A DNA stretch of 64,000 nucleotides, taken from positions 128,221 through 192,220 of the forward strand of contig DASRHC010000032.1 of NCBI GenBank assembly GCA_035650715.1, written 5' to 3'. A model generated the notes under the pieces. It had not been told where the DNA came from and searched no databases. It saw nothing but the letters and a program-made list of their open reading frames with translations. The position numbers and the translations under genes are program-made. Positions 12,997 through 57,394 of the stretch are shown in pieces (positions within the stretch are counted from its first letter, which is position 1; every line of letters begins with the position of its first letter). The DNA comes from Candidatus Methylomirabilota bacterium (GTDB lineage Bacteria > Methylomirabilota > Methylomirabilia > Rokubacteriales > CSP1-6).

Positions 12997-15900
12997 GTGG
13001 CTTCGCGCCGACCCACATTCGCTCGTGGCCCTGGATCGGGCGCGGCACACGCATTGCTCCTCTGGTCCGGACCGTACCCGACGGCATATGATACGGTCCA
13101 CTCAGCGGTGGCGAAGCCCGGCTCGCACTTCGTTTCGAATCTCAGGCCCCATGCCGTCGCGATCCTCGCGGTGGCGGCCGCCCTCGCCTGCTCGTTGCTC
13201 TCCCTGCCCCTGGTCGAGCGCTCGCAGCTGTTCCTGCTGCTCGCCGCCGTCGTCCTGAGCGCCTGGTACGGCGGGGCGCGCCCCGGCCTGCTGGCCACCG
13301 CCCTCGCGGTGCTGGTGCAGCACACGGTCTTCGAGACCCAGGGGCACGACTGGATCCGGACCGCGATGTTCGTGCTGATCTGCGCCGGCATCTGCGCGGC
13401 GGCCGCGGGACGCCGGCGCGCCGAGGCGCGACTGCGCGAGCAGCGCGAGGAGCTGGCGGTGACGCTCGCCAGCATCGCGGACGCGGTGGTGGTGACCGAC
13501 GTGGCCGGGCGCGTGCGGTTCATGAACGCGGCCGCCGAGCGTCTCACCGGGCGCTCGGCCCAGGAGGCCCGCGGGCGGCCGCTGCCCGCGATCTGCCCGC
13601 TCGTGTCGGAGGAGACCCGGGCTCCGGTGGAGAGCCCGGCGGCCCGGGTGGTGCGGGACGGGGCGCTCGCCCCGCGCACCGGGCTCCTGCTGGTGCGTCG
13701 CGACGGGCAGGAGCGGCCGGTCGACGAGAGCGGCGCGCGGCTCTTCGATCCCGAGGGAGCGGTCGACGGCGCGGTGCTGGTGCTGCGCGATCTGACCGAG
13801 CGCCGGAGCATCGAGCGGGAGCAGGCGGCGGTCATCGCCCGCGAGCAGTCGGCCCGGCGCGACGCGGCCGCGCTCTCCGCGGTGGGCCAGGCCCTGGTGC
13901 AGTCCCTGGACCGCGCGAGCGTCGGCCGCCACATCGCCGAAGGCATACGCACGTTGCTCGGCGGCAGCATCTCGGTGCTGTGGGAGCTGGACGCGATGAC
14001 CGGCCGCCTGGTGGCGGTCGCGGCGTCGGGGGCGGGGGACAACTTCGCGCCCGGCACCGCCATCCCCGGCGACGAGATGGTCGCGGGCCTCGCGGTCCGC
14101 GAGGGCGCGCCGGTGGCCAGCCCCGACATGCTGTCGGATCCCCGTGTGGTCCTGCACCCGGAGACCCGGGCGCTGGCCGAGCGGTCCAGTCACCGGGCGG
14201 TGCTCGCGGTCCCGCTGACCATCGGCGGCCGGATCACCGGCGTCCTGGCGGTCGGCGACGCGCAGGGCCGGACGTTCGCCCCGCACGAGATCCAGCGCTT
14301 GCAGGACTTCGCCAATCAGGCCGCCATCGCGCTCGAGAACACGCGGCTCTTCGCGCTCGAGAGCGCGCGGCGCGCGCAGATGGAGGCCCTCGCGGCGGTG
14401 CAGCGCGAGCTCAGCGCCGAGCTCGACCTGGACCGCCTGCTCGGGCTGATCATCGAGCGCGCGGGCCAGCTGCTCGACGGCGCCTCCTTCGCGTACCTGG
14501 TGGACGAGGAAGGCCACCCGTCCGGGACGCGCGTGTGGACGCGCCGCGAGCCCGCCCCGGAGGCGCCGTTCCCGGCCCACGGCGGGCTGGTGGCCAGCTG
14601 CGCGAGCGCGCGGCAGGGGCTCCTCGCCAACGACTATCCCCGTTCGCCCTACGCGCTGCCGGAGGTGGTGCAGCTGGGCGTGCGGCACGCGATGGCGGTG
14701 CCGCTGGTCAGCCGCGACCGTCTGCTCGGCGTGCTGGTGCTGGCGCGCCCCGAGGAGGGCCGGCCCTTCTCCCGCGAGGACCTGGTGACCTTCGAGGGGC
14801 TGGCGGTGCAGGCCGCGGTCGCGGTGGACAACGCGATGCTGTTCATCGAGGCGGGCGCCCGCCAGCGCGAGGCCGAGGTGCTGGCCGAGCTGGCGCGGTC
14901 GATCAACGCCGCGCACGACGTGGGCACGGTGCTCCAGCGGGTGGTCGACGGCGCCAAGGAGCTGTGCGGCTGCGATCTCACCGGCGTGGCGCTGCGCGAG
15001 AGCGAGTCGGGCAGCGTCGTCATGCGGAACCGGGCCGGCGAGTATCGCAGCCCGCCGGACCGGCTGGTGATCGAGCCGGGGCATGGCGCCGGCGGCTTCG
15101 TGCTGGAGACCGGGCAGCCCTTCCGCAGCGACAACCTGGTTCGGGACCCTCGTCTGATCCCGAATCCGGCGGATCGGGTGGACGTGGAGGGCATCGTCAC
15201 GAGTTTGGTCGTCCCGATCCTGGTGGAGGGCGCGGTGGAGGGACTCCTCTACGTGCACCGGCGCACCCCGCGTCCGTTCACCGACCGCAACGAATCGACC
15301 CTCCGGCTGCTGGCGGAGTACGCGAGCATCGCGATCCACAACATGCGGCTGCTCGCCCACGAGCACCAGATGCGGGCGGAGGCCGAGGGCGCGAGCCGGA
15401 TGAAGGACGAGTTCCTGGCCACCATCTCGCACGAGCTGCGCAGCCCGCTCCAGCCGCTGCTGAACTGGGCCTACCTGCTCCGGTCGCCCAACCTGGATCC
15501 GGCCAGCGCGGAGCGGGCGCTCGACGCGATCGAGCGCAGCACCAAGACCCTGGGCCAGCTCATCGAGGACCTCCTCGACGTCTCCCGCATCGTCACCGGC
15601 AAGCTGCGGCTGCAGGCGCGGCCGGTGCGGCTGCCGGGGGTGGTGCGCGCGGCCATGGAGGCGGTGGAGTCCGCCGCGCTCGCCAAGTCGGTGACGCTGG
15701 ACGCCCACATCGACCCCGACGTGCCGGCAGTCCTGGGCGATCCCGACCGTCTCCAGCAGGTGCTGTGGAACCTGCTCTCCAACGGGATCAAGTTCACCCC
15801 GCGCGGCGGACGCGTGACGGTGTCGGTGTCGACCCAGGACGGCGACGTGGTGCTCACGGTGGCCGACAGCGGCGCCGGCATCAAGCCCGAGTTCCTGCCC

Positions 15901-16533
15901 CACGTGTTCGAGCGCTTCCGCCAGGCCGAGAGCAGCACCAACCGGGCGTACGGCGGGCTCGGGCTGGGGCTCGCCATCGTGCGGCACCTCGTGGAGCTGC
16001 ACGGCGGCAGCGTCTCGGTGGCGAGCGACGGGGAGGGACGCGGCGCCACCTTCACGGTGCGGCTGCCGGTCGCGGCGGCCGCACGGCCGCCCGCGGAGCG
16101 CCCGCCGGCTGCGGTCAGCACCGAGCCGCCCGCGGGGACCAGCCTGTCCGGCCTGCGCATCCTGGTGGTCGACGACGAGGCCGACGCGCGCGAGGTGATG
16201 CGGTTCATGCTCGAGCGCGGCGGCGCGCGCGTGCTCATCGCGGACTCCGCGGGCGCCGCGCTCGACGCGATCCGCGAGGAGCGTCCGGACCTGCTCATCA
16301 GCGACATCGGCATGCCGGTCGAGGACGGCTACGTGATGGTGCGGCGCCTGCGGGCGATGGAGGACGGCATGGGCAGCCGGCTGCCCGCGATCGCCCTGAC
16401 CGCCTACGCGAGCGAGGAGGACGCGCGCCGGGCCCGCAACGCCGGGTTCGACGCCCACCTCTCCAAGCCGGTCGACCCCGCGCGCCTCATCGAGATCGCG
16501 CTGCGCCTGGCCGGGGCGCGTCCCCGCGTCTGA
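12997..16533 (+). CDS. hybrid sensor histidine kinase with a KdpD-like DUF4118 membrane domain, PAS, three GAF domains, HisKA, HATPase and a C-terminal receiver
   Basis: Domain order read from the sequence: membrane LSAWYGGARPGLLAT, a PAS domain, three GAF repeats, the H-box ISHELRSPL, HATPase G-boxes, then a REC with the Asp in LISDIGMP. The true start is uncertain and may be GTG near 13108. Confidence 0.85.
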   Translation: MASRRPTFARGPGSGAAHALLLWSGPYPTAYDTVHSAVAKPGSHFVSNLRPHAVAILAVAAALACSLLSLPLVERSQLFLLLAAVVLSAWYGGARPGLLATALAVLVQHTVFETQGHDWIRTAMFVLICAGICAAAAGRRRAEARLREQREELAVTLASIADAVVVTDVAGRVRFMNAAAERLTGRSAQEARGRPLPAICPLVSEETRAPVESPAARVVRDGALAPRTGLLLVRRDGQERPVDESGARLFDPEGAVDGAVLVLRDLTERRSIEREQAAVIAREQSARRDAAALSAVGQALVQSLDRASVGRHIAEGIRTLLGGSISVLWELDAMTGRLVAVAASGAGDNFAPGTAIPGDEMVAGLAVREGAPVASPDMLSDPRVVLHPETRALAERSSHRAVLAVPLTIGGRITGVLAVGDAQGRTFAPHEIQRLQDFANQAAIALENTRLFALESARRAQMEALAAVQRELSAELDLDRLLGLIIERAGQLLDGASFAYLVDEEGHPSGTRVWTRREPAPEAPFPAHGGLVASCASARQGLLANDYPRSPYALPEVVQLGVRHAMAVPLVSRDRLLGVLVLARPEEGRPFSREDLVTFEGLAVQAAVAVDNAMLFIEAGARQREAEVLAELARSINAAHDVGTVLQRVVDGAKELCGCDLTGVALRESESGSVVMRNRAGEYRSPPDRLVIEPGHGAGGFVLETGQPFRSDNLVRDPRLIPNPADRVDVEGIVTSLVVPILVEGAVEGLLYVHRRTPRPFTDRNESTLRLLAEYASIAIHNMRLLAHEHQMRAEAEGASRMKDEFLATISHELRSPLQPLLNWAYLLRSPNLDPASAERALDAIERSTKTLGQLIEDLLDVSRIVTGKLRLQARPVRLPGVVRAAMEAVESAALAKSVTLDAHIDPDVPAVLGDPDRLQQVLWNLLSNGIKFTPRGGRVTVSVSTQDGDVVLTVADSGAGIKPEFLPHVFERFRQAESSTNRAYGGLGLGLAIVRHLVELHGGSVSVASDGEGRGATFTVRLPVAAAARPPAERPPAAVSTEPPAGTSLSGLRILVVDDEADAREVMRFMLERGGARVLIADSAGAALDAIREERPDLLISDIGMPVEDGYVMVRRLRAMEDGMGSRLPAIALTAYASEEDARRARNAGFDAHLSKPVDPARLIEIALRLAGARPRV

Positions 16534-16549: not shown

Positions 16550-17362
16550 TCAGCGCGCGAGGGGGCGTCGGCCCGGTCCCTGCGGGCTCACCGTCTCGAT
16601 CCGCCAGATCGGCCCCCCGGTGTAGAGGGGACCGTCGATGGCCACGAACGCGGGCACCTCGGTCGTGACCACCCAGCAGTGATAGTTGGGGGGCGTCTTG
16701 CCCAGGAGCGCCGCCGCCGTCCCGCGCAGCGGGCCGAGCTTCGGGGTCATGACGAAGTGCGTGGCCTCGACCGTGCGCTCGCCCACCGACACGGTTTCCT
16801 CGCCCACCGGAGCCAGCTGGAGCTCCACCACCAGCGGCTTCGGCATGAAGGCGATGGTCCGCACCGTCAGGGTGGCGCCCCGGGCCAGGTTCTTGAGCAG
16901 CATGATCATCATGCCGTTGTAGACGTCGGGGGCGAGGTCGAGCGCGCCCGACGCGGTCTCCGGCTCGTCGCCGCCGCGGCGCGAGCGCGCCGAGTAACGC
17001 CCGCTCTTGCGGTCGAACGTCACCTCGAGCTCCTCCGGGAACGTGGGGCCGCGCCGGATCAGGTGGTAGCGCTGCAGGGTGAAGACCTTCTGCTGGGTGA
17101 ACAGGACCGTCTCGTCGTAGAGCGAGCCGTCGCGGAAGCGGAACACGAGGCGCGAGTCCACGCCCTCCGGCTTCACCACCTGCAGCAGGTCGCCGTCCGC
17201 GAGCACCTCCCCGCCGGCGCCGCGCAGGACGAGGAAGCCGTGGGTGACGCCCTCCTGGTAGCGGGCCGCGACCGGCGCCGCGACGGCAGGGGCCGCGAGC
17301 ATGGACAGCGCGGTCACCGCGAGCGCCGCCAGCGTGCCGTGGAGCTTGCGCGTCGCCCTCAT
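16550..17362 (-). CDS. secreted hypothetical protein
   Basis: Signal peptide MRATRKLHGTLAALAVTALSMLAAPAVAAP. 270 aa. I trimmed it from the 597-aa track ORF. Confidence 0.55.
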   Translation of the reverse strand: MRATRKLHGTLAALAVTALSMLAAPAVAAPVAARYQEGVTHGFLVLRGAGGEVLADGDLLQVVKPEGVDSRLVFRFRDGSLYDETVLFTQQKVFTLQRYHLIRRGPTFPEELEVTFDRKSGRYSARSRRGGDEPETASGALDLAPDVYNGMMIMLLKNLARGATLTVRTIAFMPKPLVVELQLAPVGEETVSVGERTVEATHFVMTPKLGPLRGTAAALLGKTPPNYHCWVVTTEVPAFVAIDGPLYTGGPIWRIETVSPQGPGRRPLAR

Positions 17363-17572
17363 TGGTCGCCAGTGGTGCAAGGGTCCTGCCGCGCTCATCC
17401 CCGCGCGGCACCGGGAGGAATGTCCGGGGGGGCGCGGCGCTGCGCGGCAAATCTTCCGGGTAAGAGCTTCCGGCCCGACCGCGCGCCCCCCGAGGAAAGC
17501 GCCGGGACGGGCACATCCACTGGCCCGACCTCGGTTTCGCGCGGCATGGCCGTTGCACTCGTCGGTCACCCC

Positions 17573-18424
17573 ATGAGCACTTCCCATTTTCTCCGGATCG
17601 CGGCGATCGCCGATCTGCACTGCACCCCCGCGTCCGAGGGCGTGTTCCAGCCCCTGTTCGGCAAGGTCGGCGAGAGCGCGGACGTGCTCGTCCTGTGCGG
17701 AGACCTCACCGACTACGGCACCGCCGACGAGGCGCGCGTGCTGGCCAAGGAGCTGGGGGTCACCAAGGTGCCCAAGGTCGCGGTGCTCGGCAACCACGAC
17801 TTCGAATCGAACGCGGCGTCCGAGGTGGCGCGGATCCTCACCGAGGCGGCCGGCGTCGTCGTGCTCGACGGCACCGCGGTCGAGGTGATGGGCGTGGGAT
17901 TCGCGGGCGTGAAGGGCTTCGCGGGCGGCTTCGGCGAGCGGGCGCTGCAGTCGTGGGGCGAGGAGCCGATCAAGGCCTTCGTGCGGGCCGCGCTCGACGA
18001 GGCGCTCAAGCTCGAGACCGCGCTCGCGCGGCTCCGGACGCCCGGGCGCGTGGCGCTCCTGCACTATTCGCCCATCGGCGCCACCGTGTGGGGAGAGCCC
18101 ACCGAGATCTTCCCCTTCCTCGGCTCGAGCCGGCTCGAGGAGCCGCTCAACCGCTACCGCCCGAGTGTGGTCTTCCACGGGCACGCCCATCGCGGCTCCC
18201 CCGAGGGGACCACCGCGTCGGGGGTGCCCGTCTACAACGTGGCCCTGCCGCTGCTCAAGCGGGCCGAGCCGGAGCGGCCGCCGTTCCGGGTCGTCGAGGT
18301 GCCGCTGCCCGAGGACGGGACCGGCGGCCCGGACTCGAGCCATCGCGCCGCGGACGGCCAGCCCGGCGCCACGCTGGCGCGCGCGGGTGAGCCCACCGCC
18401 CCCGCGCGCCCGGTGCGCCCATGA
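17573..18424 (+). CDS. metallophosphoesterase (calcineurin-like phosphoesterase)
   Basis: Motifs IADLHC, GDLTDYG, GNHD and GHAH match the MPE metal-binding motifs. The alternative start is 17546. Confidence 0.75.
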   Translation: MSTSHFLRIAAIADLHCTPASEGVFQPLFGKVGESADVLVLCGDLTDYGTADEARVLAKELGVTKVPKVAVLGNHDFESNAASEVARILTEAAGVVVLDGTAVEVMGVGFAGVKGFAGGFGERALQSWGEEPIKAFVRAALDEALKLETALARLRTPGRVALLHYSPIGATVWGEPTEIFPFLGSSRLEEPLNRYRPSVVFHGHAHRGSPEGTTASGVPVYNVALPLLKRAEPERPPFRVVEVPLPEDGTGGPDSSHRAADGQPGATLARAGEPTAPARPVRP

Positions 18425-19287
18425 GCCCCGCGGTCGCGTCGCCGCGCCCGCCGCGCGCGGAGGGCCCGTCCCCCGCCGCCGGCCGCTTCTACCGTCGGGT
18501 GCTCGCCGGGCTCAACGCGGCCGGCATCGAGTTCCTGGTGGGCGGCGGCCACGCGCTCGAGTGCTATCTCGGGATCGGCCGCTCGGTGAAGGACCTGGAT
18601 CTGTTCATGCGCGAGCGCGACGTGGCGGCCGCGCTGCGCGTGGTCCGGGAGCGGCTCGGCTACGGCGGCGAGATCACGTTCCCGCACTGGCTGGCCAAGA
18701 TCACGCGCGGCCGCGATCACATCGACGTGATCTTCAACTCCGGCAACGGGGTGTGCGCGGTGGACGACGAGTGGTTCCACCACGCGGTGCCGTCCAGCGT
18801 GATGGACGAGCCGGTGGCGCTCTGCCCGCCCGAGGAGACCATCTGGTCCAAGGCCTTCGTGATGGAGCGCGAGCGCTACGACGGGGCGGACATCGCCCAT
18901 CTCCTCCACGCCCGCGCCGAGGCCCTCGACTGGGGCCGGCTGGCCCGGCGCTTCGGGCCCTACTGGCGCGTGCTGCTGAGCCACCTGATCCTGTTCGGCT
19001 TCATCTATCCGTCGGAGCGCGCCCGCATCCCGGAGCCCCTCATGCGGCGCTGTCTCGAGCTGCTGGAGGCCGAGATGCGCCGGCCCTCGGCGCGGCGCGT
19101 CTGCCGCGGCACCATCACGTCGCGCGCGCAGTACCTGGTGGACGTGCAGCTCTGGGGCTACGAGGACGGCCGGCTCGATCCCCCCGGCCGCATGACGGAG
19201 AGCGACGCCTCCATCTGGACCGCGGCCATCGACGAGGCGGCGAGCCGGCCGGTGGGCGCCGACTCCATGGGCGAGGCCCCGGCGTGA
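18421..19287 (+). CDS. nucleotidyltransferase-fold protein (pol-beta-like minimal NTase core, uncharacterised family)
   Basis: LVGGGHALECYLGIGRSVKDLDLF fits hG[GS]x(9-15)DxD. ATGA overlap with the MPE stop. 288 aa. Confidence 0.55.
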   Translation: MSPAVASPRPPRAEGPSPAAGRFYRRVLAGLNAAGIEFLVGGGHALECYLGIGRSVKDLDLFMRERDVAAALRVVRERLGYGGEITFPHWLAKITRGRDHIDVIFNSGNGVCAVDDEWFHHAVPSSVMDEPVALCPPEETIWSKAFVMERERYDGADIAHLLHARAEALDWGRLARRFGPYWRVLLSHLILFGFIYPSERARIPEPLMRRCLELLEAEMRRPSARRVCRGTITSRAQYLVDVQLWGYEDGRLDPPGRMTESDASIWTAAIDEAASRPVGADSMGEAPA

Positions 19288-19991
19288 AAGCGGCGCCCGC
19301 CGTCTCGCTGTCGCGCCGCCCCGCACCGCCGCCCCGCCGCCGCTGGTGGCCGCTGGCCCTCGCGGGCTGCGTGCTGCTGGCGGGCATGGTGATCGGCCAC
19401 ACGGTGGACCTCGGCCCGTACGTGCACACCGCGCGCACCTGGACCGGCGCGCTGGGAGTGCTCGCGCCCGCGGCCTACGTGGCCGTCTACGTGGCGGCCA
19501 CGCTGCTCGGGGTGCCGGGGGTCGCGTTCACGCTGCTGGCGCCGCTCCTGTTCGGGTTGTGGCCCGCGGTGGCGGTGATGATCGTGGCGAGCGCGCTGTC
19601 GGCGGCGGGCGGGTTCCTCATCGCCCGCTACCTGGCCCGCGACGCGCTCCGGGCGCGCCTCGATGGCTCCCCGGCCTTCGCGCGGCTCAGCCGGCTCCTC
19701 GAAGCCAACGACTGGTTCGTGATCCCGGTGCTGCGGATCGTCCCGCTCGCGCCGTTCGCGGTCGTGAACTACGGCTTCGGGCTCACCGGCATCGGCTTCT
19801 GGCGCTACGAAGCCTGGTCGGTGCTGGCCATGGTGCCCATGAACGTGGCGTTGATCCTGGGCGCCGAGGCCTTCTACCGCGCGGCGGTCCGCGGCAGCGT
19901 GCCGTGGCCCCTGCTGGCCGGCGCCGGCATCGCCGCCCTGCTCCTGGTGGCGCTGGCGGCGGCGGGCGGTCGGGCCTTCGCCCGGTCCTGA
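19284..19991 (+). CDS. TVP38/TMEM64 (DedA/SNARE-associated) family membrane protein
   Basis: Polytopic protein with the DedA-type motif VIPVLRIVPLAPFAVVNYGFGLTGI. The GTG start overlaps the upstream stop by 4 nt. Confidence 0.7.
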   Translation: MKAAPAVSLSRRPAPPPRRRWWPLALAGCVLLAGMVIGHTVDLGPYVHTARTWTGALGVLAPAAYVAVYVAATLLGVPGVAFTLLAPLLFGLWPAVAVMIVASALSAAGGFLIARYLARDALRARLDGSPAFARLSRLLEANDWFVIPVLRIVPLAPFAVVNYGFGLTGIGFWRYEAWSVLAMVPMNVALILGAEAFYRAAVRGSVPWPLLAGAGIAALLLVALAAAGGRAFARS

Positions 19992-19994
19992 GCC

Positions 19995-21539
19995 ATGGAA
20001 GCCCTCGTGCTGCGGATCCAGGCGCTGGTCGATCGGTGGAGCCGGTGGCTTCGCCTTGCTCCCGAGCCCGGTGCCTCGCGCGCGCGCCGCTTCCTGGTCA
20101 TCCAGATCGACGGCCTGTCGCGCGTCGCGATGCAGCGCGGCCTTCACAACGGCAGCCTGCGCGACCTGGGCCGCCTGCTCGCGAGCGGCCGGCTCGTGTG
20201 CCGCGACCTGTCGGTGGGGCTGCCGTCCTCGACGCCTGCGTTCCAGGCCGCGATCATGTACGGCGGGCGGCCGGACATCCCCGGCTTCCACTTCTTCGAC
20301 AAGCGCACGGGCCGGGACCTCCACTTCCCGCACCGCGGCGTCGCCGACTTCGTGGAGGAGCGCCACGCCGCGGGCCGGGCCGGCATCCTGGAGGACGGCT
20401 CCTGCTACGGCTGCGTGTTCACCGGCGGGGCGCCCAACGCGCTGTGGACGTTCGCGCGCCTCAAGCGGCTGGCGCGCGCGGGGCGCGGGGTGCGGCGCAC
20501 GCTGCTCTGCTCGCTCCTGCTCCTCTGGGTCGCGCTCAAGTGCGTGGGGCTCACCGCGGCCACGCTGGGCCGCTTCCTCGGCCGGGTCGTCCTGTCCCTG
20601 GCCGCCGGCCGGCCCCGGGTGCGCTGGTCGCTGGAGGCGCTGATGCTCGAGATCGGCGTGTCCATCTGGGCCCGCGAGCTCTTCACCCTGCTGGTCTCGG
20701 CGGACCTCTATCGCGGCACGCCCGCCGTCTACGTCAACTTCCTCGACTACGACGTCTTCGCCCATTCGTACGGCCCGTACGACCGGCTCGCGTTCCGGGC
20801 CCTTCGCGGCGTCGACCGGTCCATCCAGCAGCTCGCGCGGATCGTGCGCCGCCTGCCCGAGCTCGGCTACGACCTCTACGTGCTGTCCGACCACGGGCAG
20901 ATCGAGACGTGGCCCTTCCAGGCGAAGCCCGGCGAGCCGTCCCTCGAGGACGTGGTGCGGGAGGCGCTCGGCGGTCCGGCCCCCGCGCCGCGGGTCGTCG
21001 CGGCCGGTCCCAACGCGTTCGTGTACTTCACCGATCGGCCCGAGCCGCTGGTGGCCTCCGAGATCGAGGCCCGCCACCCGGGCGCGCTCGCCCGCCTGTC
21101 GCGGTATCCGGGCATCGGCCTCGTCCTGGCGCGCGGCGCGCGCGGGCCCGAGTGCTGGTACCGCGGCCGGCGCGTCCCGCTGAGCCGGCGGCTCGATCCC
21201 TCGGTGCGCGATCCGTTCGCGCGCCGGGCCGACCGCGACGTGGTGGTGGCCGACCTGCGCGAGCTGATGGCGATGCCGAGCGCGGGGGACATCGTGCTCT
21301 ACGGCACCGGCACGCCCGGGCGCCCGGTGAGCTTCATCCCCGAGCGGGGCGCCCACGCGGGTCCCTCCGAGGAGGAGATGCAGACGTTCATCTGCCATCC
21401 GCCGGGGGTGCGGCTGCCCGCCGGCGCGCTCACCCATCCCCGACAGCTCTATCCCCACTTCCGCGAGTACCGCGGCACGGCGGGGGAGGGCGGACGCGAG
21501 GCGAAGCCGGCGGAGTCAGCGGCATGCCTCGTGCGCTGA
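19995..21539 (+). CDS. alkaline-phosphatase superfamily enzyme, type I phosphodiesterase/nucleotide pyrophosphatase-like
   Basis: Motifs NFLDYDVFAHSYGP and VLSDHGQ typical of NPP/AP-superfamily metal sites. Hydrophobic segments lie near residues 160-200. Confidence 0.7.
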   Translation: MEALVLRIQALVDRWSRWLRLAPEPGASRARRFLVIQIDGLSRVAMQRGLHNGSLRDLGRLLASGRLVCRDLSVGLPSSTPAFQAAIMYGGRPDIPGFHFFDKRTGRDLHFPHRGVADFVEERHAAGRAGILEDGSCYGCVFTGGAPNALWTFARLKRLARAGRGVRRTLLCSLLLLWVALKCVGLTAATLGRFLGRVVLSLAAGRPRVRWSLEALMLEIGVSIWARELFTLLVSADLYRGTPAVYVNFLDYDVFAHSYGPYDRLAFRALRGVDRSIQQLARIVRRLPELGYDLYVLSDHGQIETWPFQAKPGEPSLEDVVREALGGPAPAPRVVAAGPNAFVYFTDRPEPLVASEIEARHPGALARLSRYPGIGLVLARGARGPECWYRGRRVPLSRRLDPSVRDPFARRADRDVVVADLRELMAMPSAGDIVLYGTGTPGRPVSFIPERGAHAGPSEEEMQTFICHPPGVRLPAGALTHPRQLYPHFREYRGTAGEGGREAKPAESAACLVR

Positions 21540-24043
21540 GCCGCTCGGGCCTCTCCCTCCGCGCGTGCCTGGCGGTGCTGGTGGCGGCCGCGGTGCTGCC
21601 GCTCGTGGTCCTCGCGATCTCGCTCTCGGCCACGATCGCGCGCGAGCAGCGCGCGGCCCAGCGCGGCCGCATGGAGGAGACCGCGCTGGCGCTGGCCGCC
21701 GCCGTCGAGCGCCATCTCGCCGACACCGTGCACACCCTGGAAGCGCTGGCGGCGTCGTCCACGCTGGCGGAAGCCGACCCGGTCGCGCTCCGGGCGGATT
21801 TCGCGCGCCTGCGGGGCGGGCAGCGCGGCTGGCGGACGCTCGCGCTCCTGACGTCCGAGGGGCGCACCGTGGTCGACACCTCGAGCCCGCCCGCGGTGCC
21901 CGATCCGTCGTCCCCGGACGGCGTCCGCGCCGTGCTGGATCGCAACGGCCCCGTGGTCACGCACGACGCCGACGCCGCGCCGGACACCTTCGCGGTGCGG
22001 GTGCCGGTGGTGCGCGACGGCATCCCGCGCTACGTGCTGACCGCCACCGTGTCGGCGGACGCGGTCACCGCCGAGCTCGTCACGCACCGGCTGCCGCCCG
22101 CGTGGGCCGCCTCGCTGGTGGACGCGCGCGGCGACGTGCTCGAGAGCCTGCCCGCCGCGCCCGGCCTGGCCCGCCGCCCCCGCTTCCCCTTCGTGGCGGG
22201 AGCGGCGGGCTCGGGCTGGGGTGGGCGCGCCGACATGCCGGCCGGGCCCGTGTACTTCGCGTACGCGCGCCCGGCGCTCACCGACTGGCACGTGGTGCTG
22301 GCGGTGCCGGTGGCGGCCCTCGACGAGCCGTGGCGGCGCACGCTCGCCCGTCTCGCGGGAGCGGGGGCCGCCGCGCTGCTCGCCTCGCTGGCGCTGGCCG
22401 CCCTGGTGGCCCGCCCCATCGTGCGCTCCTTCGTGTCACGCGAGGCGGAGGGCCGGCGGCCGGCGCCGGACGGCGGGCGGGCGGCGGAGTCGCGCTTCCG
22501 CGCGGTGGCGGACGCGGCGCCGGTGCTGGTGTGGCTGGCCGCGCCCGACACCCGCCGCACCTGGTTCAACCAGCGCTGGCTCGCCTTCGTGGGCCAGCGC
22601 CTCGAGGACGAGGTCGGCGGCGACTGGATGCGCCACGTCCACCCCGACGACCGGGCCCGCTGCGCCGAGACCATCGCGCACGCGTTCGCGGCGCGCCGCC
22701 GCTTCGTGGTCGAGTACCGCCTGCGCCGGCACGACGGCACCGACCGCTGGGTCCGCGACGACGGCGTGCCGCTGCACGATCCCGACGGGACCCTCACCGG
22801 CTACGTGGGCGCCGGCCAGGACGTCACCGCGCAGCGCGCGGCGGAGCGCGAGCGCGACGACCTGCTCGTCCGGGAGCGCCAGGCGCGGCGCGAGGCGGAG
22901 GCGGCGAGCCAGGTGAAGGACGACTTCCTGGCCAGCCTGTCCCACGAGCTGCGGGCGCCGCTGAACGCGGTGCGGATCTGGGCCGGCGTGCTGCGCAGCG
23001 GGCTGCACGATCCCGAGAGCCTCGTTCGCGCCGCCGACACCATCGACCGCCACGCGGTCTTGCAGACGCGGCTCATCGAGGACCTGCTCGACGTCGCCCG
23101 GGTCGTCTCGGGGCGGCTCCGCCTGGTGCGCGAGCGCGTGGTGCTGGTGCCGGTGGTGGACGCCGCGCTCGAGACGGCGCGCCCCACCGCGCTCAACAAG
23201 GGCGTGGTCCTGATCCGCCGCGTCGACCCGGACGCGGGCGTGGTGCTGGGCGACGCGGTGCGGCTGCAGCAGGTGGTGTGGAACCTGCTCGCCAACGCGG
23301 TGCGCTTCACGCCCGCGGGCGGCCGGGTCGAGGTGTCGCTGCGCCGGCGGGGCGACCACGCGGAGATCGAGGTGGCGGACTCCGGGCGGGGCATCGCGGC
23401 CGACCTGCTCCCGCACGTGTTCGATCGCTTCCGGCAGGGCGAGACCGGCACCGCCCGCTCGCACGGCGGGCTCGGTCTCGGGCTCTCCATCGCGCGCCAG
23501 CTGGTGGAGCTGCACGGCGGCACCATCCAGGCCGCGAGCCCCGGCGAGGGCGAGGGCGCCACCTTCACCGTGCGCCTGCCCGAGCCCGGCGGCCTGTCCG
23601 GGGGGCCGGCGCTCGAGCGGCCCGCCGAGGCCCCGGAACGGACGCTCGAGCGCGTCCACGTCCTGGTGGTGGACGACGACCCGGAGGCGCGCGACGTGAT
23701 GGTCCTGGGCCTGGGCCAGCAGGGCGCCACGGTGACCGCGGTGCCGTCGGTCGCCGAGGCGCTGGTCGCGGTCGAGCGCGACTGGCCCGACGTGCTGCTG
23801 GGGGACATCGGCATGCCGGGGGAGGACGGGTACGACCTGATCCGGAAGGTGCGGCGGCTGGAGGCGATCCGCGGCCGCCACATCCCCGCGATCGCGGTGA
23901 CGGGCTACGCGGCCGACGAGGATCGCCGCCGCGCCCTGGAGGCCGGGTACGAGTTGCACGTGGCCAAGCCGGTCCCCGCGACGGTGGTGGCGCCGCTGAT
24001 CGAGAGCCTCCTCTCGCCGCACGGCCCCCGGTTTACCGGGTAA
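21524..24043 (+). CDS. hybrid sensor histidine kinase with periplasmic sensor domain, PAS, HisKA, HATPase and a C-terminal receiver
   Basis: Signal/TM segment, a periplasmic domain of about 250 aa, a second TM, a PAS domain, the H-box LSHELRAPL, HATPase, and a REC (LLGDIGMP). The start overlaps the upstream gene by 16 nt. The upstream part of track ORF 19346..24043 is an artefact. Confidence 0.85.
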   Translation: MPRALSRSGLSLRACLAVLVAAAVLPLVVLAISLSATIAREQRAAQRGRMEETALALAAAVERHLADTVHTLEALAASSTLAEADPVALRADFARLRGGQRGWRTLALLTSEGRTVVDTSSPPAVPDPSSPDGVRAVLDRNGPVVTHDADAAPDTFAVRVPVVRDGIPRYVLTATVSADAVTAELVTHRLPPAWAASLVDARGDVLESLPAAPGLARRPRFPFVAGAAGSGWGGRADMPAGPVYFAYARPALTDWHVVLAVPVAALDEPWRRTLARLAGAGAAALLASLALAALVARPIVRSFVSREAEGRRPAPDGGRAAESRFRAVADAAPVLVWLAAPDTRRTWFNQRWLAFVGQRLEDEVGGDWMRHVHPDDRARCAETIAHAFAARRRFVVEYRLRRHDGTDRWVRDDGVPLHDPDGTLTGYVGAGQDVTAQRAAERERDDLLVRERQARREAEAASQVKDDFLASLSHELRAPLNAVRIWAGVLRSGLHDPESLVRAADTIDRHAVLQTRLIEDLLDVARVVSGRLRLVRERVVLVPVVDAALETARPTALNKGVVLIRRVDPDAGVVLGDAVRLQQVVWNLLANAVRFTPAGGRVEVSLRRRGDHAEIEVADSGRGIAADLLPHVFDRFRQGETGTARSHGGLGLGLSIARQLVELHGGTIQAASPGEGEGATFTVRLPEPGGLSGGPALERPAEAPERTLERVHVLVVDDDPEARDVMVLGLGQQGATVTAVPSVAEALVAVERDWPDVLLGDIGMPGEDGYDLIRKVRRLEAIRGRHIPAIAVTGYAADEDRRRALEAGYELHVAKPVPATVVAPLIESLLSPHGPRFTG

Positions 24044-24158: not shown

Positions 24159-24788
24159 ATGGCGGCTTCGAACGTGAAGGTGGAAGAGGTGACGATGGTT
24201 AGCTACGACGACGGAGGTGCCGACGTGCGGGCCCCGTGGCCCCTGTCCTGGAGCGGCGTGTGGGTGGGGGCCCTGGCCTCGATCGCGCTGGTGGTGATCT
24301 TCGGGTTGATCGGCATCGCCATCGGGGCCCACCGCGCGGGTCACGCGCTCGGGCGCTGGCACGATATGGGCTTCCTGACGCTGCTCTGGAGCGTGCTCGC
24401 CGCGTTCCTGTCGTTCGCCGCGGGCGGCTGGGTCGCGGCCAGGATCGCGGGGATACGCCGCTCCGAGTCCGGGATGCTGCACGGAGCGATCGCCTGGCTG
24501 GTCGCGGTGCCCTTCATCCTGGCGCTGAGCGCCCTCGGTGCCTCGACCTACTTCGGGACCTGGTACGGCGGTCTCGCCGGCACCCCGTCGTGGGTGACGG
24601 GGACCGCGAGCGCGGCCCAGGATCCCGCCGCGGCCATCGCGGCGCGGAACGGCGCGGTCGCGGCGGTCACCGCCCTGCTGCTGGGTCTGGTCGGCAGCGT
24701 GGTTGGCGGCTGGATGGCTTCGGGGGAGCCGATGACCTTCACCTACTACCGGACGCGACCCGTCCGATCGGGTACGGGGGGATGGTGA
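24159..24788 (+). CDS. hypothetical membrane protein
   Basis: GGGAGGG RBS before the ATG. Four predicted TM helices. No recognised family. Confidence 0.5.
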   Translation: MAASNVKVEEVTMVSYDDGGADVRAPWPLSWSGVWVGALASIALVVIFGLIGIAIGAHRAGHALGRWHDMGFLTLLWSVLAAFLSFAAGGWVAARIAGIRRSESGMLHGAIAWLVAVPFILALSALGASTYFGTWYGGLAGTPSWVTGTASAAQDPAAAIAARNGAVAAVTALLLGLVGSVVGGWMASGEPMTFTYYRTRPVRSGTGGW

Positions 24789-24897: not shown

Positions 24898-25233
24898 ATG
24901 GACCAGCTGGTGGGAGAGCTCGTGAGAGTGGGCTTCCTTCTCACGCTGTGGGGCTTCGGAATCTGGGTGGGCGGCGCGGCCGTGACCGCGTGGGTCGCCT
25001 GGGAGAAAGGGCGGGATCCGGCCGCCTGGTTCGTCATGGGATTCTTCCTGTCCCCGCTGGTGGCGCTGATCGCGTTGAGCGCGGTGCCCGCGCGGCACCT
25101 CGCACGCATACGCGTCGCCCAGCGAGCGACGCGGGTCGGCCGGCCGCGGCCGATCGACCCGTCGCGGCTGGCCGCGCGGATCGGCACGGCCCGCGTCGTG
25201 GGTACGGTCCGTGAGCACAAGGCCAACGCGTAG
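24898..25233 (+). CDS. small hypothetical membrane protein
   Basis: Two or three TM helices and a basic C-terminus. A GAGAGGG RBS lies upstream. Confidence 0.45.
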   Translation: MDQLVGELVRVGFLLTLWGFGIWVGGAAVTAWVAWEKGRDPAAWFVMGFFLSPLVALIALSAVPARHLARIRVAQRATRVGRPRPIDPSRLAARIGTARVVGTVREHKANA

Positions 25234-26164
25234 CGACGGCGGCATCTGGGCGGTGGTGCTGGCGGGGGGCGAGGGCGGGCGCCTGCGCCCGCTGCTGCGC
25301 CGTGCGCTCGGCGAGGACCGACCGCCCCAGTACCTGCCGCTGCTCGGCTCGCGGACCCTGCTGGACGAGACGCTCGAGCGGATCGGGCTGCGTGTCCCGG
25401 CGTCGCGCATGGTCGTCGTGACGGTGCGGGCGCACGTGCCGCACGTCGCGGAGCAGTTCACCGGTGTCGCCGATCCGCCCTACGTGCTCCTGCAGCCGCG
25501 CGACCGCGGCACCGCGCCCGCCCTCCTGCACGCGGCGCGCTGGGTCGCCCGCCGCGAGCCGGAGGCGATGCTGGCCGTCTTTCCGTGCGACCAGTTCGTG
25601 CGGGGCGCGGCCACGTTCATGGCGCACGTGCTGGACGTTGCGTACGCCCTGGCGTGCTCTCCGGAGCGCGTGGCCCTGCTCGGCACGGCGCCGGCCTCGC
25701 CCGGCGGCGACCACGGGTGGATCGAGTCCGGCGCGCCCCTCGAGGACGCGGACGATCTGCTCGCCACCGTGCGCGCGCTGGAACCCCGGGCGGGGGAGGC
25801 CGGCGAGTACGGGGCGGGCTCCGGCGGATGGAACACCGGGGTGGTCGTCGGCTCGGCGGCCGCCCTCATCGTGCTCGGGCACCGGACGCGGCCCGATGTG
25901 AGCGCGCACCTCGACCGCGCGCACGTCGACGGCGCGCACGGCGAGCCGGACGCGGCCGCGCTGCGCGAGGCGTATGCCGCGATGGCGGCCGTCTCCTTCG
26001 AGGAGATGGCGGCCGCCGCCCCGGCGCAGCTGACCGTGTCCCGCCTGCCGCGAGTCACCTGGTGCGACCTCGGCCGCGTCGACGGGCTGCTCGCGGCCAT
26101 CACGCACATGCGGGTCCGCCCGGCGTGGGCCGACGCGATCGACCATTCGGCGGTGCCGGCGTAG
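25211..26164 (+). CDS. sugar-phosphate nucleotidyltransferase (mannose-1-phosphate guanylyltransferase-like)
   Basis: AVVLAGGEGGRLRPL matches the NTP_transferase G-loop. AVFPCDQF matches the ManC/GMP pattern. Confidence 0.7.
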   Translation: MSTRPTRSDGGIWAVVLAGGEGGRLRPLLRRALGEDRPPQYLPLLGSRTLLDETLERIGLRVPASRMVVVTVRAHVPHVAEQFTGVADPPYVLLQPRDRGTAPALLHAARWVARREPEAMLAVFPCDQFVRGAATFMAHVLDVAYALACSPERVALLGTAPASPGGDHGWIESGAPLEDADDLLATVRALEPRAGEAGEYGAGSGGWNTGVVVGSAAALIVLGHRTRPDVSAHLDRAHVDGAHGEPDAAALREAYAAMAAVSFEEMAAAAPAQLTVSRLPRVTWCDLGRVDGLLAAITHMRVRPAWADAIDHSAVPA

Positions 26165-57336: not shown

Positions 57337-57394
57337 CGCGCGCCGCCCGCGCGGGGCGTCCCGCGGATCTTGCCGCGGGGAGTAGAGTACGAGC

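Follow-up and report, generated by a model that had tools for sequence, protein, structure and literature searches.

We examined an array of five genes in a window of 64,000 nucleotides of DNA from a Candidatus Methylomirabilota bacterium, and we consider it most probable (about 55%) that these genes make up an operon-like mosaic, specific to the lineage, with at its core an ancient, stress-induced module that adds and removes nucleotidyl groups, namely a metallophosphoesterase (MPE) together with a MenT/ANT(2'')-like nucleotidyltransferase (NTase). The MPE-NTase pair is an ancient, widespread and uncharacterised two-gene module present in hundreds of bacterial species. The other three genes, which encode a DedA protein (g3), an NPP-type phosphodiesterase (g4) and a hybrid histidine kinase (g5), are recent local additions, g3 and g4 being lineage-specific additions to the pair.

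A GC3 frame plot of the window (74% GC) gave five plus-strand genes (Table 1), and the same five were called independently on three public contigs that contain the identical sequence. Together with the Pfam matches, these results bear out the genes and all domain assignments of an earlier note on this DNA. The ATGA (g1/g2), GTGA (g2/g3) and 16-nt (g4/g5) overlaps given in that note are present in the junction sequences, but its 3-nt overlap between g3 and g4 is a 3-nt spacer, since the junction reads TGAgccATG. Compact high-GC operons often have short overlaps, and overlaps alone are not unusual. Searches inside the array for a terminator-like site, a sigma-70-like promoter or an Rfam element found none, and co-transcription of the five genes is plausible. 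The intergenic region upstream of g1 is presumably the promoter region of the array; a search of it for a sigma-70-like site, an Rfam family or a riboswitch found none.

Table 1. Features of the array and its surroundings, in window positions
Feature	Position	Strand	Length	Description	Evidence
Divergent gene 5' of array	16550-17365	-	270 aa		Frame plot, gene calls
Intergenic region	17366-17572	.		Between divergent minus-strand gene and g1	Frame plot, gene calls
g1	17573-18424	+	283 aa	Calcineurin-like metallophosphoesterase (MPE), conserved partner of NTase	Pfam Metallophos, E 2.8e-13
g2	18421-19287	+	288 aa	Pol-beta-fold nucleotidyltransferase (NTase), DUF2204/NTP_transf_5 group	Pfam
g3	19284-19991	+	235 aa	DedA/VTT-domain membrane protein, ~5-6 TM segments	Pfam VTT_dom, E 3.7e-19; hydropathy
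g4	19995-21539	+	514 aa	NPP/alkaline-phosphatase-superfamily phosphodiesterase	Pfam Phosphodiest, E 7.5e-9
g5	21524-24043	+	839 aa	Hybrid sensor histidine kinase	Pfam PAS + HisKA + HATPase_c + Response_reg
Membrane protein	24159-24788	+	209 aa		58% identity to L001:9039-9647
Ku (NHEJ) gene	26171-27082	+			Pfam Ku, E 1.5e-41

The main evidence for the two-gene module comes from tblastn searches with the five proteins. Among 83 species-level loci anchored on the NTase, from more than 10 phyla, the MPE gene adjoins the NTase gene in 81, which very strongly supports the functional coupling of these two genes proposed in the earlier note. The gene order is MPE then NTase in 35 loci (mostly with a 4-nt overlap), divergent in 35 and NTase then MPE in 10. 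The pair is the unit under selection: adjacency is near-obligate across phyla in all three arrangements (co-directional, reversed and divergent). Both proteins are unusually conserved, with 50-75% identity between phyla. In a collection with one genome per species, tblastn confirmed the family at 591 or more places, and it forms 2374 clusters at 50% identity. We found no functional study of any member of the NTase family in the literature. A single MPE-NTase fusion protein is known (P0131), a one-contig singleton that may be a frameshift artefact.

The active-site motifs are conserved in both enzymes. In the NTase they take the form GGG…DxD…D (G41-G42-G43, D58-x-D60 and D102); all six residues are invariant in an alignment of 16 sequences, and among 68 sequences D102 never varies and conservation of G41, G42, D58 and D60 is 90% or higher, G43 being in neither group. 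The earlier note had left the grouping of this protein to profile and structure comparison. It matches DUF2204 with 25.5 bits (cut-off 20.3) and NTP_transf_5 with 27.7 bits, under the cut-off of 31.2, and its nearest structural relatives are the tRNA-nucleotidylating toxin MenT1 and ANT(2'')-Ia, not the CD-NTases; a search for a close solved structure of the family found none. What it shares with the CD-NTase/CBASS systems is the pol-beta superfamily and the concept of making a nucleotide product and later breaking it down. The MenT/AbiEii (DUF1814) toxins, such as M. tuberculosis MenT1 (PDB 8an4) and TglT/MenT3, are 16% identical to the window NTase and are partnered by an AbiEi/MenA antitoxin or a kinase rather than a metallophosphoesterase; compared with them the window NTase has ~90 extra, highly conserved C-terminal residues. 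Its C-terminal half, which is helical and family-specific, is missing from ANT(2'')-Ia (AadB) and LnuA, which are ~175-aa enzymes encoded by mobile-element resistance genes without an MPE partner; the window NTase falls below the Pfam threshold for these antibiotic O-nucleotidyltransferases.

The MPE resembles the Icc/MPPED2/Rv0805 phosphodiesterases, Mre11 and PptH. Every NCBIfam match lies far under its cut-off, and a comparison with solved Icc/CpdA-type members gave no match at the sequence level. A conserved, family-specific insertion, GFAGGFG...W-G-E, distinguishes it from the Icc/CpdA-type class III phosphodiesterases (Rv0805, MPPED2, Lmo2642).

Evidence for a role in stress comes from the alphaproteobacteria. 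RpoE2 is a general-stress sigma factor. The same two-gene module, in the order NTase then MPE with a 4-nt overlap, is present on pSymB of Sinorhizobium meliloti as SMb20082 and SMb20081 (locus tags from PMC3616915); when RpoE2 is overexpressed, these go up by log2 4.0 and 2.2, respectively (PMC6180224, supplementary file 2). This pair is the sole family member with experimental data, i.e., RpoE2 induction, and the two loci are mentioned in the literature only in expression tables. A further copy lies on Rhizobium etli p42b (WP_011427514/WP_011427513), whose MPE and NTase are 55% and 38% identical to those of the window with all motifs in common. The rhizobial modules differ from the window pair in a shorter NTase C-terminus, reversed gene order and location on plasmids; their annotations go no further than conserved hypothetical, nucleotidyltransferase family or metallophosphoesterase. 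An EcfG-type promoter motif, GGAAC-N15-17-[CT]GTT, with a background density of 0.12 per kb per strand, occurs 35-58 nt 5' of where the NTase gene starts in three alphaproteobacterial genera: Rhizobium (two strains), Sinorhizobium and Sphingobium. The EcfG motif is absent from the 200 nt upstream in three of seven alphaproteobacterial loci, and the mapped S. meliloti transcription start site (94399) lies ~110 nt upstream of the position predicted from the motif. Membership of the pair in the EcfG/RpoE2 general stress regulon is shown for the alphaproteobacteria only, and its application to Methylomirabilota is an extrapolation from distant relatives that are 38-55% identical.

Genes of stress or stationary phase are over-represented around the pair: ClsB-like PLD, LigD polymerase and Ku genes (counts below), with SRPBCC, BON and ferritin-like genes also recurring. 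Of the immediate neighbours, 10.9% encode two-component receiver-domain proteins, compared with ~2% of genes at least four genes away, a roughly five-fold enrichment (Fisher p = 5e-6) that agrees with the association with a sensor kinase suggested in the earlier note. These receiver proteins are of unrelated types, including hybrid kinases, PleD-like GGDEF proteins and sigma-54 activators.

The three downstream genes have a much narrower distribution. A g3-type DedA gene adjoins the pair in only two of the 83 loci (L004 and L005), a g4-type NPP gene in three (L004-L006) and a kinase related to g5 in at most two. The earlier note had named two findings that would speak against it, loss of the catalytic residues from the NTase-fold protein and five genes never found together elsewhere; with the residues kept and the array recurring in L005, and probably L004, neither is the case. 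The five-gene order is confined to the nearest Methylomirabilota relatives, and outside this small subclade DedA, NPP and this kinase are not near the pair; the five genes do not form one conserved system. The g5 protein consists of a TM segment (residues 7-41), a ~230-aa periplasmic domain with a weak dCache_1 match, a second TM segment (274-304), PAS, HisKA, HATPase_c and a receiver domain. The L005 kinase is 46% identical to it from query residue 251, at the second TM segment, to the contig end in the ATPase domain, and is without the periplasmic sensor domain. In g4 a hydrophobic segment is inserted at residues ~166-192, and metal-ligand/nucleophile-like motifs (D39, S78-S79-T80, D250/D252/H256, D299-H300) were picked out by eye rather than from a reference alignment; its distant homologues adjoin an Exo_endo_phos gene.

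Comparison of gene orders suggests how the array was assembled. The window reads MPE-NTase-DedA-NPP-kinase-209aa-111aa-NTP_transferase-Ku. A related locus, L001, reads CBS-MPE-NTase-202aa-Ku followed by a minus-strand methyltransferase, and its Ku-side flank is also found in the window's own contig; a second locus of the same genome (L084), without the pair, reads GAF-HK-271aa(minus strand)-NPP-111aa-...-NTP_transferase. The order in L006 is MPE-NTase-NPP-223aa. NPP and the pair lie at separate loci in a related 5.4-Mb genome, NPP holding the syntenic position there with none of MPE, NTase, DedA and the g5 kinase. The older locus can be recognised by the 209-aa membrane protein, since in L001 its orthologue is the gene immediately after the NTase; in L006 the orthologue comes after NPP. 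The Ku gene is part of this older MPE-NTase-membrane protein-Ku neighbourhood, and DedA, NPP and the kinase appear to have been inserted stepwise between the NTase and a 205-aa membrane protein/Ku gene in one Methylomirabilota subclade.

This stepwise insertion speaks against the reading of the five genes as one circuit, in which a nucleotide-derived small-molecule signal would be made by the NTase, degraded by the MPE and NPP, transported or answered at the membrane by DedA and detected by the hybrid kinase. In its favour are the contiguous, overlapping genes and their recurrence together, the cyclic-nucleotide phosphodiesterases MPPED2, Rv0805 and Lmo2642 among the nearest MPE folds, the small-molecule substrates of ANT-like NTases, the excess of receiver proteins beside the pair and an NPP homologue fused to a receiver domain (P0322). 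However, the pair does without the three other genes outside one subclade, NPP occupies its syntenic site without the pair, the receiver proteins near the pair are of unrelated types, the periplasmic sensor is missing even in L005, and a cytoplasmic product would be out of its view. No link was found that ties the second phosphodiesterase or the kinase sensor to a nucleotide product, as the earlier note had proposed; we regard this reading as unlikely, and the data do not support a dedicated second-messenger circuit of five genes. A MenT/AbiEii-type module for toxin-antitoxin or anti-phage function, with the NTase as a tRNA-nucleotidylating growth-arrest toxin and the MPE as enzymatic antidote, would agree with weak PADLOC AbiEii matches on the NTase N-terminus, an MPE match to candidate system PDC-S10, precomputed Pfam AbiEii assignments in some homologues and the compact two-gene form with its frequent 4-nt overlap. 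It is nevertheless quite improbable: conservation across phyla is very high and largely vertical-looking, unlike that of fast-evolving toxin-antitoxin or defence genes, the many divergent pairs are atypical of toxin-antitoxin operons, AbiEi or MenA-type antitoxins are absent, GGG replaces the hG[GS] motif with the phosphorylatable Ser/Thr that controls MenT toxins, a scan of 2.9 million viral contigs with one pattern gave no copies, and in S. meliloti the pair is part of a stress regulon of the housekeeping kind. Unlike the MenT/AbiEii toxins, the family is stress-regulated rather than mobile.

Two further readings take the neighbours as the guide. Ku lies downstream of the pair in the window and L001. 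A LigD primase-polymerase gene is found within 7 of the 83 loci of ~20 kb (Ku in two, plus the window), and LigD accounts for 5 of 290 immediate or second neighbours. This could indicate a DNA-end accessory of NHEJ that works with Ku and LigD, an Mre11-like MPE cleaning ends and a pol-beta-fold NTase adding nucleotides. In S. meliloti, NHEJ is likewise stress-inducible and RpoE2-linked (PMC6379672). We rate this reading as improbable as the toxin-antitoxin one, given that ~90% of loci have no NHEJ gene near the pair, that the MPE is without the Mre11 capping domain and that a common stress regulon accounts equally well for the association. A phospholipid or head-group pathway, in which both enzymes act on a nucleotide-activated lipid or head group (for example by LicD/FKRP-like phospho-alcohol transfer or LpxH/Cdh-like pyrophosphate cleavage) as partners of cardiolipin synthase, DedA and the membrane NPP, seems very unlikely. 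In 15 of 83 loci, which come from three phyla, a ClsB-type cardiolipin synthase (PLD) gene does lie within five genes of the pair, and one copy scores 661 bits on the ClsB equivalog model; a DAG kinase, an LPG_synthase_TM protein and PAP2 are all encoded at one locus; in the window the pair is followed by DedA and a membrane-anchored NPP; and the MPE has a weak NCBIfam likeness to LpxG. Against this, ClsB is usually convergent to the pair, not co-transcribed, and absent in 80% of loci, the FKRP and LpxG likenesses are weak, and the NTase has no predicted TM segment and the MPE one borderline hydrophobic stretch (95-113) in its catalytic core. Lipid genes are typical stationary-phase genes, and shared regulation therefore accounts for their co-localisation with the pair.

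For the preferred reading, a nucleotidyl-adding and -removing module, we envisage that in stressed or non-growing cells the NTase would move NMP from an NTP to a hydroxyl of a conserved cellular acceptor, as a first guess the 3' end of RNA or tRNA, or else a small molecule or protein. The mild acidity of both core proteins (pI 6.3 and 5.7) does not favour a nucleic-acid acceptor. The cytoplasmic MPE would strip the same nucleotidyl group, making the two a writer/eraser pair; alternatively, it may trim a blocked 3' end first, after which extension would be possible. The writer/eraser logic is drawn by analogy only, from PptT/PptH and DarT/DarG. In M. tuberculosis PptT and PptH form one operon of a transferase and a metallophosphoesterase that reverses its product; PptT transfers phosphopantetheinyl groups and is no pol-beta NTase, and the likeness is one of system logic only. 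The g3 protein, the membrane-anchored g4 and g5 probably share only transcription with the pair, and the g5 kinase would fit the general tendency of the pair to adjoin two-component regulators. The tight g2/g3 and g4/g5 overlaps, both kept in L005 (the latter at the same 16 nt), could signal a functional tie of g3-g5 acquired in this clade.

The unit that is conserved and selected is the pair formed by the metallophosphoesterase (MPE) and the pol-beta-fold nucleotidyltransferase (NTase), two of the five genes that are tightly packed in the window. Loci were fetched through an alignment of NTase homologues from a one-genome-per-species collection, in which at least 591 places were confirmed by tblastn; the analyzed set of 83 loci consists of the best 80 of these together with three further contexts from encoding contigs, and co-occurrence was assessed by tblastn of the five window proteins against this set. 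The MPE gene adjoins the NTase gene in 81 of the 83 loci (one of the exceptions lies at a contig end), the DedA gene is found in two (L004 and L005, the nearest Methylomirabilota relatives), the NPP-type phosphodiesterase (NPP) in three (L004–L006) and a related kinase in at most two. By seeded gene calls, the MPE gene precedes the NTase gene in 35 loci (most of them showing a 4-nt overlap) and follows it in 10, and the two genes are divergent in 35. The pair loci come from Methylomirabilota, Acidobacteriota, Gemmatimonadota, Burkholderiales, other Gammaproteobacteria, Cyanobacteria, Planctomycetota, Verrucomicrobiota, Chloroflexota, Binatia, Myxococcota, Nitrospirota and Bacteroidota, and in the loci from other phyla the identity to the window proteins is 47–58% for the NTase and 54–70% for the MPE. 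An exhaustive NTase profile search yielded 2374 clusters at 50% identity with E<=1e-3, and 417 with E<=1e-30. Among these clusters, the protein P0131 (510 aa), a singleton on a single contig, is a fusion of MPE and NTase and lends slight support to the coupling of the two. Literature searches by Pfam names, locus tags, and combinations of MPE and NTase with stress or RNA repair returned no functional description of the pair. Few two-gene modules for which we found no assigned function are as widespread and as well conserved: in soil phyla its relatives range from Methylomirabilota and Acidobacteriota as far as rhizobia and cyanobacteria.

The window has a GC content of ~74% and its raw ORF lists consist mostly of shadow frames; genes were delimited by a codon-position GC plot. 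The five genes and all domain assignments proposed in the earlier note are borne out by Pfam, by the GC plot and by gene calls on three public contigs with an identical NTase, which give the same five products and junctions; NCBI annotates the exact NTase sequence as derived from a MAG of Methylomirabilota (Rokubacteria). The MPE and NTase genes are joined by ATGA and the NTase and DedA genes by GTGA, and the NPP and kinase genes overlap by 16 nt; the DedA and NPP genes, which had been described as overlapping by 3 nt, are in fact separated by a 3-nt spacer (TGAgccATG). The array would plausibly form a single transcript. Scans of the segment 16.4–25.3 kb were negative for Rfam elements, for sigma-70-like promoters and for intrinsic terminators, and an NCBIfam search of the first four proteins gave nothing above cut-off.

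Features of the window in and around the five-gene array (g1–g5), with positions in nucleotides
Feature	Positions	Strand	Length	Assignment or remark
Another large hybrid histidine kinase, two genes ahead of g1	13054-16533	+	1159 aa	DUF4118, PAS, three GAF, HisKA, HATPase_c, receiver
Divergent gene upstream of g1	16550-17365	minus		207-nt intergenic region before g1
g1 MPE	17573-18424	+	283 aa	Pfam Metallophos, 51.2 bits (cut-off 21.5)
g2 NTase	18421-19287	+	288 aa	Pfam DUF2204/NTP_transf_5
g3 DedA	19284-19991	+	235 aa	Pfam VTT_dom
g4 NPP	19995-21539	+	514 aa	Pfam Phosphodiest, 36.1 bits (cut-off 23)
g5 hybrid histidine kinase	21524-24043	+	839 aa	Pfam PAS-HisKA-HATPase_c-Response_reg; weak dCache match between two TM segments
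Sugar-nucleotidyltransferase (NTP_transferase), just downstream of the array	25211-26164	+
Ku, just downstream of the array	26171-27082	+
Long open frame, probably a shadow ORF	57370-60570	+	1066 codons	Atypical codon-position GC (0.88/0.66/0.77)
Normal-looking gene overlapped by the long frame	57395-59095		566 aa

Comparison with related genomes shows the array to be a recent mosaic. In a related genome of 5.4 Mb, the pair lies in the order CBS-MPE-NTase-202aa-Ku-methyltransferase(-), and 2.5 Mb away the same genome carries the order TauE-ApbA-GAF hybrid kinase-271aa(-)-NPP-111aa-...-NTP_transferase. The window combines the two as TauE-ApbA-GAF kinase-270aa(-)-MPE-NTase-DedA-NPP-kinase-209aa-111aa-NTP_transferase-Ku-methyltransferase(-), and L006 is intermediate, with ApbA(-)-MPE-NTase-NPP-223aa-115aa. 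The 209-aa membrane protein of the window is a 58%-identical orthologue of the 202-aa protein found directly after the NTase in the related genome, and was not found outside this close clade. Because Ku stands two genes after the NTase in that genome, the association of Ku with the pair seems to be an old one within the clade. The upstream hybrid kinase is kept at the same position in the second of the two segments, where the related genome has no pair. All five genes recur in this order in L005, including the 16-nt overlap, but there the kinase lacks the periplasmic domain and is 46% identical from query residue 251 (the second TM segment) to the contig end inside the ATPase domain; L004, in which a HATPase fragment follows the NPP gene, probably has it too. 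In these two loci the NTase is 73–75% identical to that of the window; each of the remaining 80 has just the pair or, in the case of L006, the pair with the NPP. The five-gene state, limited to one small subclade, was reached step by step, through insertions that separated the NTase from its older neighbours. The genes do recur together elsewhere, as a reading of the five as one unit demands, but beyond close relatives this arrangement is absent among the 83 loci. In the lineage of the window, transcription is most likely all that DedA, NPP and the kinase have in common with the pair. This is a caution for annotation, since in high-GC genomes genes that came together recently can look like one system when they overlap tightly.

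The NPP has separate associations of its own, as indicated by its pairing with another gene and by a receiver fusion. More distant homologues (52–55% identity) in L085 (6001-8396) and L086 (6001-8414) are instead paired with an Exo_endo_phos (EEP) phosphatase gene, to which they are translationally coupled in what looks like a separate conserved two-gene unit. In P0322 (648 aa, JGI), a homologue 70% identical to the NPP of the window is fused to an N-terminal CheY-like receiver domain, and NPP would therefore be a direct phosphorelay output in some organisms. The window protein is assigned to the NPP/alkaline-phosphatase superfamily from its sequence, in which candidate active-site residues were located by eye (D39, S78-S79-T80, D250/D252/H256 and D299-H300). 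Sequence searches of the PDB with the MPE, NPP and DedA proteins gave nothing usable.

The MPE carries the metal-binding motifs of the calcineurin-like metallophosphoesterase superfamily, to which it belongs: D14-L-H16, G43-D44, G73-N-H-D76, H164 and G203-H-A-H206. An alignment of 45 sequences from different phyla shows no variation at G43, D44, G73-N74-H75, H164, H202-G203-H204 and H206, and conservation of at least 90% at D14 and H16. A structure predicted with the use of database homologues (pLDDT 82) matches phosphodiesterases and nucleases, namely aq_1956 (score 18.5), MPPED2 (18.4), TT1561 (18.4), Mre11 (18.2), Lmo2642 (17.7), PptH (16.8), Rv0805 (16.1) and GpdQ (15.5), and no lambda-phosphatase-type protein phosphatase is among its top 60 structural matches. 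Both members of the pair are mildly acidic, and no TM segment is predicted in either except for a borderline hydrophobic stretch of the MPE (residues 95–113) that lies inside the catalytic core.

The NTase has the superfamily motif V40-G-G-G43 ... D58-L-D60 ... D102, invariant in an alignment of 16 sequences; among 68 sequences with identities as low as 31%, D102 does not vary, and conservation is at least 90% at G41, G42, D58 and D60. The retention of these catalytic residues, on which the earlier note had staked its reading, places the protein in the pol-beta-fold nucleotidyltransferase superfamily, and in a confident AlphaFold2 model computed from the 68 sequences (pLDDT 93.8) the residues fall on the strands where they are expected. 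Conservation of the C-terminal half is striking and includes the segments EExIWSKAFVMERERYDGADxAHL and CRGTxxSRAQYL. The window protein matches DUF2204 (PF09970) with 25.5 bits (cut-off 20.3) and NTP_transf_5 (PF14907) with 27.7 bits, below the cut-off of 31.2 that is passed by the homologues P0128 (37.9 bits) and P0130 (41.9 bits). By sequence profile, no solved structure was found apart from a marginal match to the N-terminal part of ANT(2''). The model matches best the MenT1 toxin (score 14.0, with 170 of 195 residues aligned), followed by ANT(2'')-Ia (11.5), TM1012 (10.6), LnuA (9.7), TglT/MenT3 (9.4), MenT4 (8.9), FKRP (8.8) and the CD-NTases CdnB, CdnE and DncV (5.8–6.7). In structure MenT1 and ANT(2'')-Ia are nearest, and an identity as a CD-NTase was rejected in the absence of a cGAS-like bilobed fold with a SMODS-type signature. 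A CBASS operon was likewise rejected, as patatin, endonuclease, TM and TIR effectors are not among the recurrent families of the 290 neighbours in the 83 loci.

Experimental data on the pair come from S. meliloti. The pair is also carried by rhizobial megaplasmids and chromids; 126 PLSDB records have it, 66 from Sinorhizobium, 46 from Rhizobium and the others from Sphingobium, Azospirillum, Skermanella and Bradyrhizobium, and it is always annotated as a "nucleotidyltransferase family protein" followed by a "metallophosphoesterase". The pair of R. etli is 55% (MPE) and 38% (NTase) identical to that of the window, with all motifs in common. In S. meliloti 1021 it consists of SMb20082 (NTase) and SMb20081 (MPE), which overlap by 4 nt (PMC3616915 supplement). 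Upon overexpression of RpoE2, an EcfG-type general stress sigma factor activated by starvation and by heat, osmotic and oxidative stress (PMC3616915), the microarray of Lang et al. shows induction of SMb20082 (log2 4.0, adjusted p 1e-26) and SMb20081 (log2 2.2, adjusted p 2e-19), and the small hypothetical neighbours SMb20083-85 are also induced (PMC6180224 supplementary file 2). Two Rhizobium strains, S. meliloti and Sphingobium have the EcfG-type motif GGAAC-N15-17-[CT]GTT at a distance of 35–58 nt before the start of the NTase gene, which makes 4 of 7 alphaproteobacterial loci compared to ~0.17 expected by chance (background of 0.12 sites/kb/strand, or ~0.025 expected per 200 nt). The orthologous pair in alphaproteobacteria belongs to the EcfG/RpoE2 general stress regulon. 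The published data that we found on the pair consist of rows in RpoE2 expression tables, and neither the EcfG paper on R. etli nor the GSR paper on Sphingomonas names its genes in the main text. SMb20081/82 offer a tractable entry into what stressed non-growing soil bacteria do to nucleic acids or metabolites.

Two details of these promoters were recorded. The published transcription start of SMb20082 (94399) is ~110 nt upstream of where the motif would start transcription; in the corresponding locus L089 (pSymB ~94.3–94.4 kb) the EcfG-like motif at ~94318 fits the originally annotated start at 94260, and an upstream start at 94344 has been proposed in print; the gene may have two promoters or two start codons. 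On the minus strand of L087 (~6780-6804) and L090 (~6861-6885), a perfect GGAAC-N16-CGTT is aimed away from the NTase at a run of very small hypothetical genes, and the rhizobial locus would therefore be a bidirectional general-stress promoter region.

Beyond alphaproteobacteria the sigma factor differs, and the neighbourhood of the pair is consistent with a role in stress. Neither a clustering of all ORFs against one another nor two Pfam censuses covering the 290 neighbours detected a conserved third gene beside the pair. The best candidates are receiver-domain proteins, adjacent to the pair in 16 of the 83 loci and within two genes in 22, and ClsB-type cardiolipin synthases (PLD family), within five genes in 15. 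LigD polymerase is found in 7 loci, Ku in 2 as well as in the window, and SRPBCC proteins in 9; BON, ferritin-like, CsbD and YtxH proteins are also recurrent. When all 1190 called genes of the 83 loci were searched with a local receiver-domain HMM, the share of receiver-domain proteins was 10.9% among immediate neighbours of the pair, 7.9% among second neighbours and ~2% four or more genes away (enrichment beside the pair, Fisher p = 5e-6). These proteins include hybrid kinases in Rokubacteria, PleD-like GGDEF regulators in Noviherbaspirillum and sigma-54 activators, and because they are so heterogeneous, regulatory input fits better than a dedicated sensor of the NTase product. This partial link to two-component signalling is the one part of the idea in the earlier note that generalises, and it leaves room for a role in signalling.

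Both enzymes of the pair are cytoplasmic and, by their motifs, catalytically intact, and the pair is stress-induced in at least one model organism. The NTase would attach an NMP to a hydroxyl group on some conserved acceptor, and the MPE would then hydrolyse the resulting phosphodiester as an eraser or prepare the 3' end of the acceptor. The extreme conservation points to a universal acceptor. By likeness to MenT1, RNA or tRNA 3' ends are our leading guess; a small molecule or a protein is a less favoured possibility. The divergent order in 35 loci would make separate regulation of the two genes possible, which suits a cycle of addition and removal. The closest precedent for such logic is PptT/PptH of M. 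tuberculosis, where a transferase and an MPE hydrolase that reverses its reaction are encoded in one operon; the fold match of PptH to our MPE model was computed here. Both folds and superfamilies are already known, the Pfam families are labelled "uncharacterised" and the chemistry is not exotic. We rate the pair as a transferase/hydrolase enzyme pair with a domesticated MenT/ANT-like NTase. Our fuller reading is tentative, with a probability of roughly one in five: the pair would be an unrecognised pan-bacterial stress writer/eraser in which reversible nucleotidylation of a universal macromolecule (for example tRNA 3' ends or a two-component receiver protein) holds cells in non-growth under stress and the phosphodiesterase erases the mark on recovery, the NTase being a domesticated, non-toxic MenT relative wired to phosphorelay. 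The pair may also reveal a housekeeping use of a MenT-type toxin fold.

The earlier note had read the five genes as a circuit in which a nucleotide-derived second messenger is made, turned over and sensed. Its genes and domains stand, and its model is supported in part, but we disfavour the circuit in view of the distribution of the genes, the synteny and the fold of the NTase, which is not that of a CD-NTase. The likeness of the NTase to MenT and AbiEii proteins, which is real in fold but short of the signature threshold, could suggest a toxin-antitoxin or defence module. Such systems have a co-transcribed AbiEi or MenA antitoxin gene directly upstream, whereas here there is no such partner, the adjoining gene is an MPE and many pairs are divergent; the high conservation, the lack of the regulatory Ser/Thr, membership in a stress regulon and a negative scan of viral contigs with one peptide pattern also argue against this explanation, which we disfavour as well. 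The window NTase has no match to Pfam AbiEii, and the PADLOC matches to AbiEii cover residues 22–78 only, with E of at least 2.5e-4; a defence-system assignment was dropped because the PADLOC matches are generic or weak.

Two further roles would each explain a minority of the neighbourhoods. ClsB, DedA, the membrane NPP and the FKRP-like fold would fit a role in lipid or head-group chemistry, and Ku, LigD and the Mre11-like fold an accessory role in NHEJ, but co-regulation within stress islands is a simpler account of both sets of neighbours than either. In Noviherbaspirillum (L080, L058, L061 and L069), the pair is divergent and has a PleD-like receiver-receiver-GGDEF diguanylate cyclase as its neighbour on one side, an arrangement that looks conserved within the genus; ClsB-type matches occur in L046, L058, L061 and L080, and not in L069. 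The homologue P0130 (694 aa), a singleton on a single contig and therefore treated as slight evidence, has a tandem of two NTase domains, both belonging to this family group.
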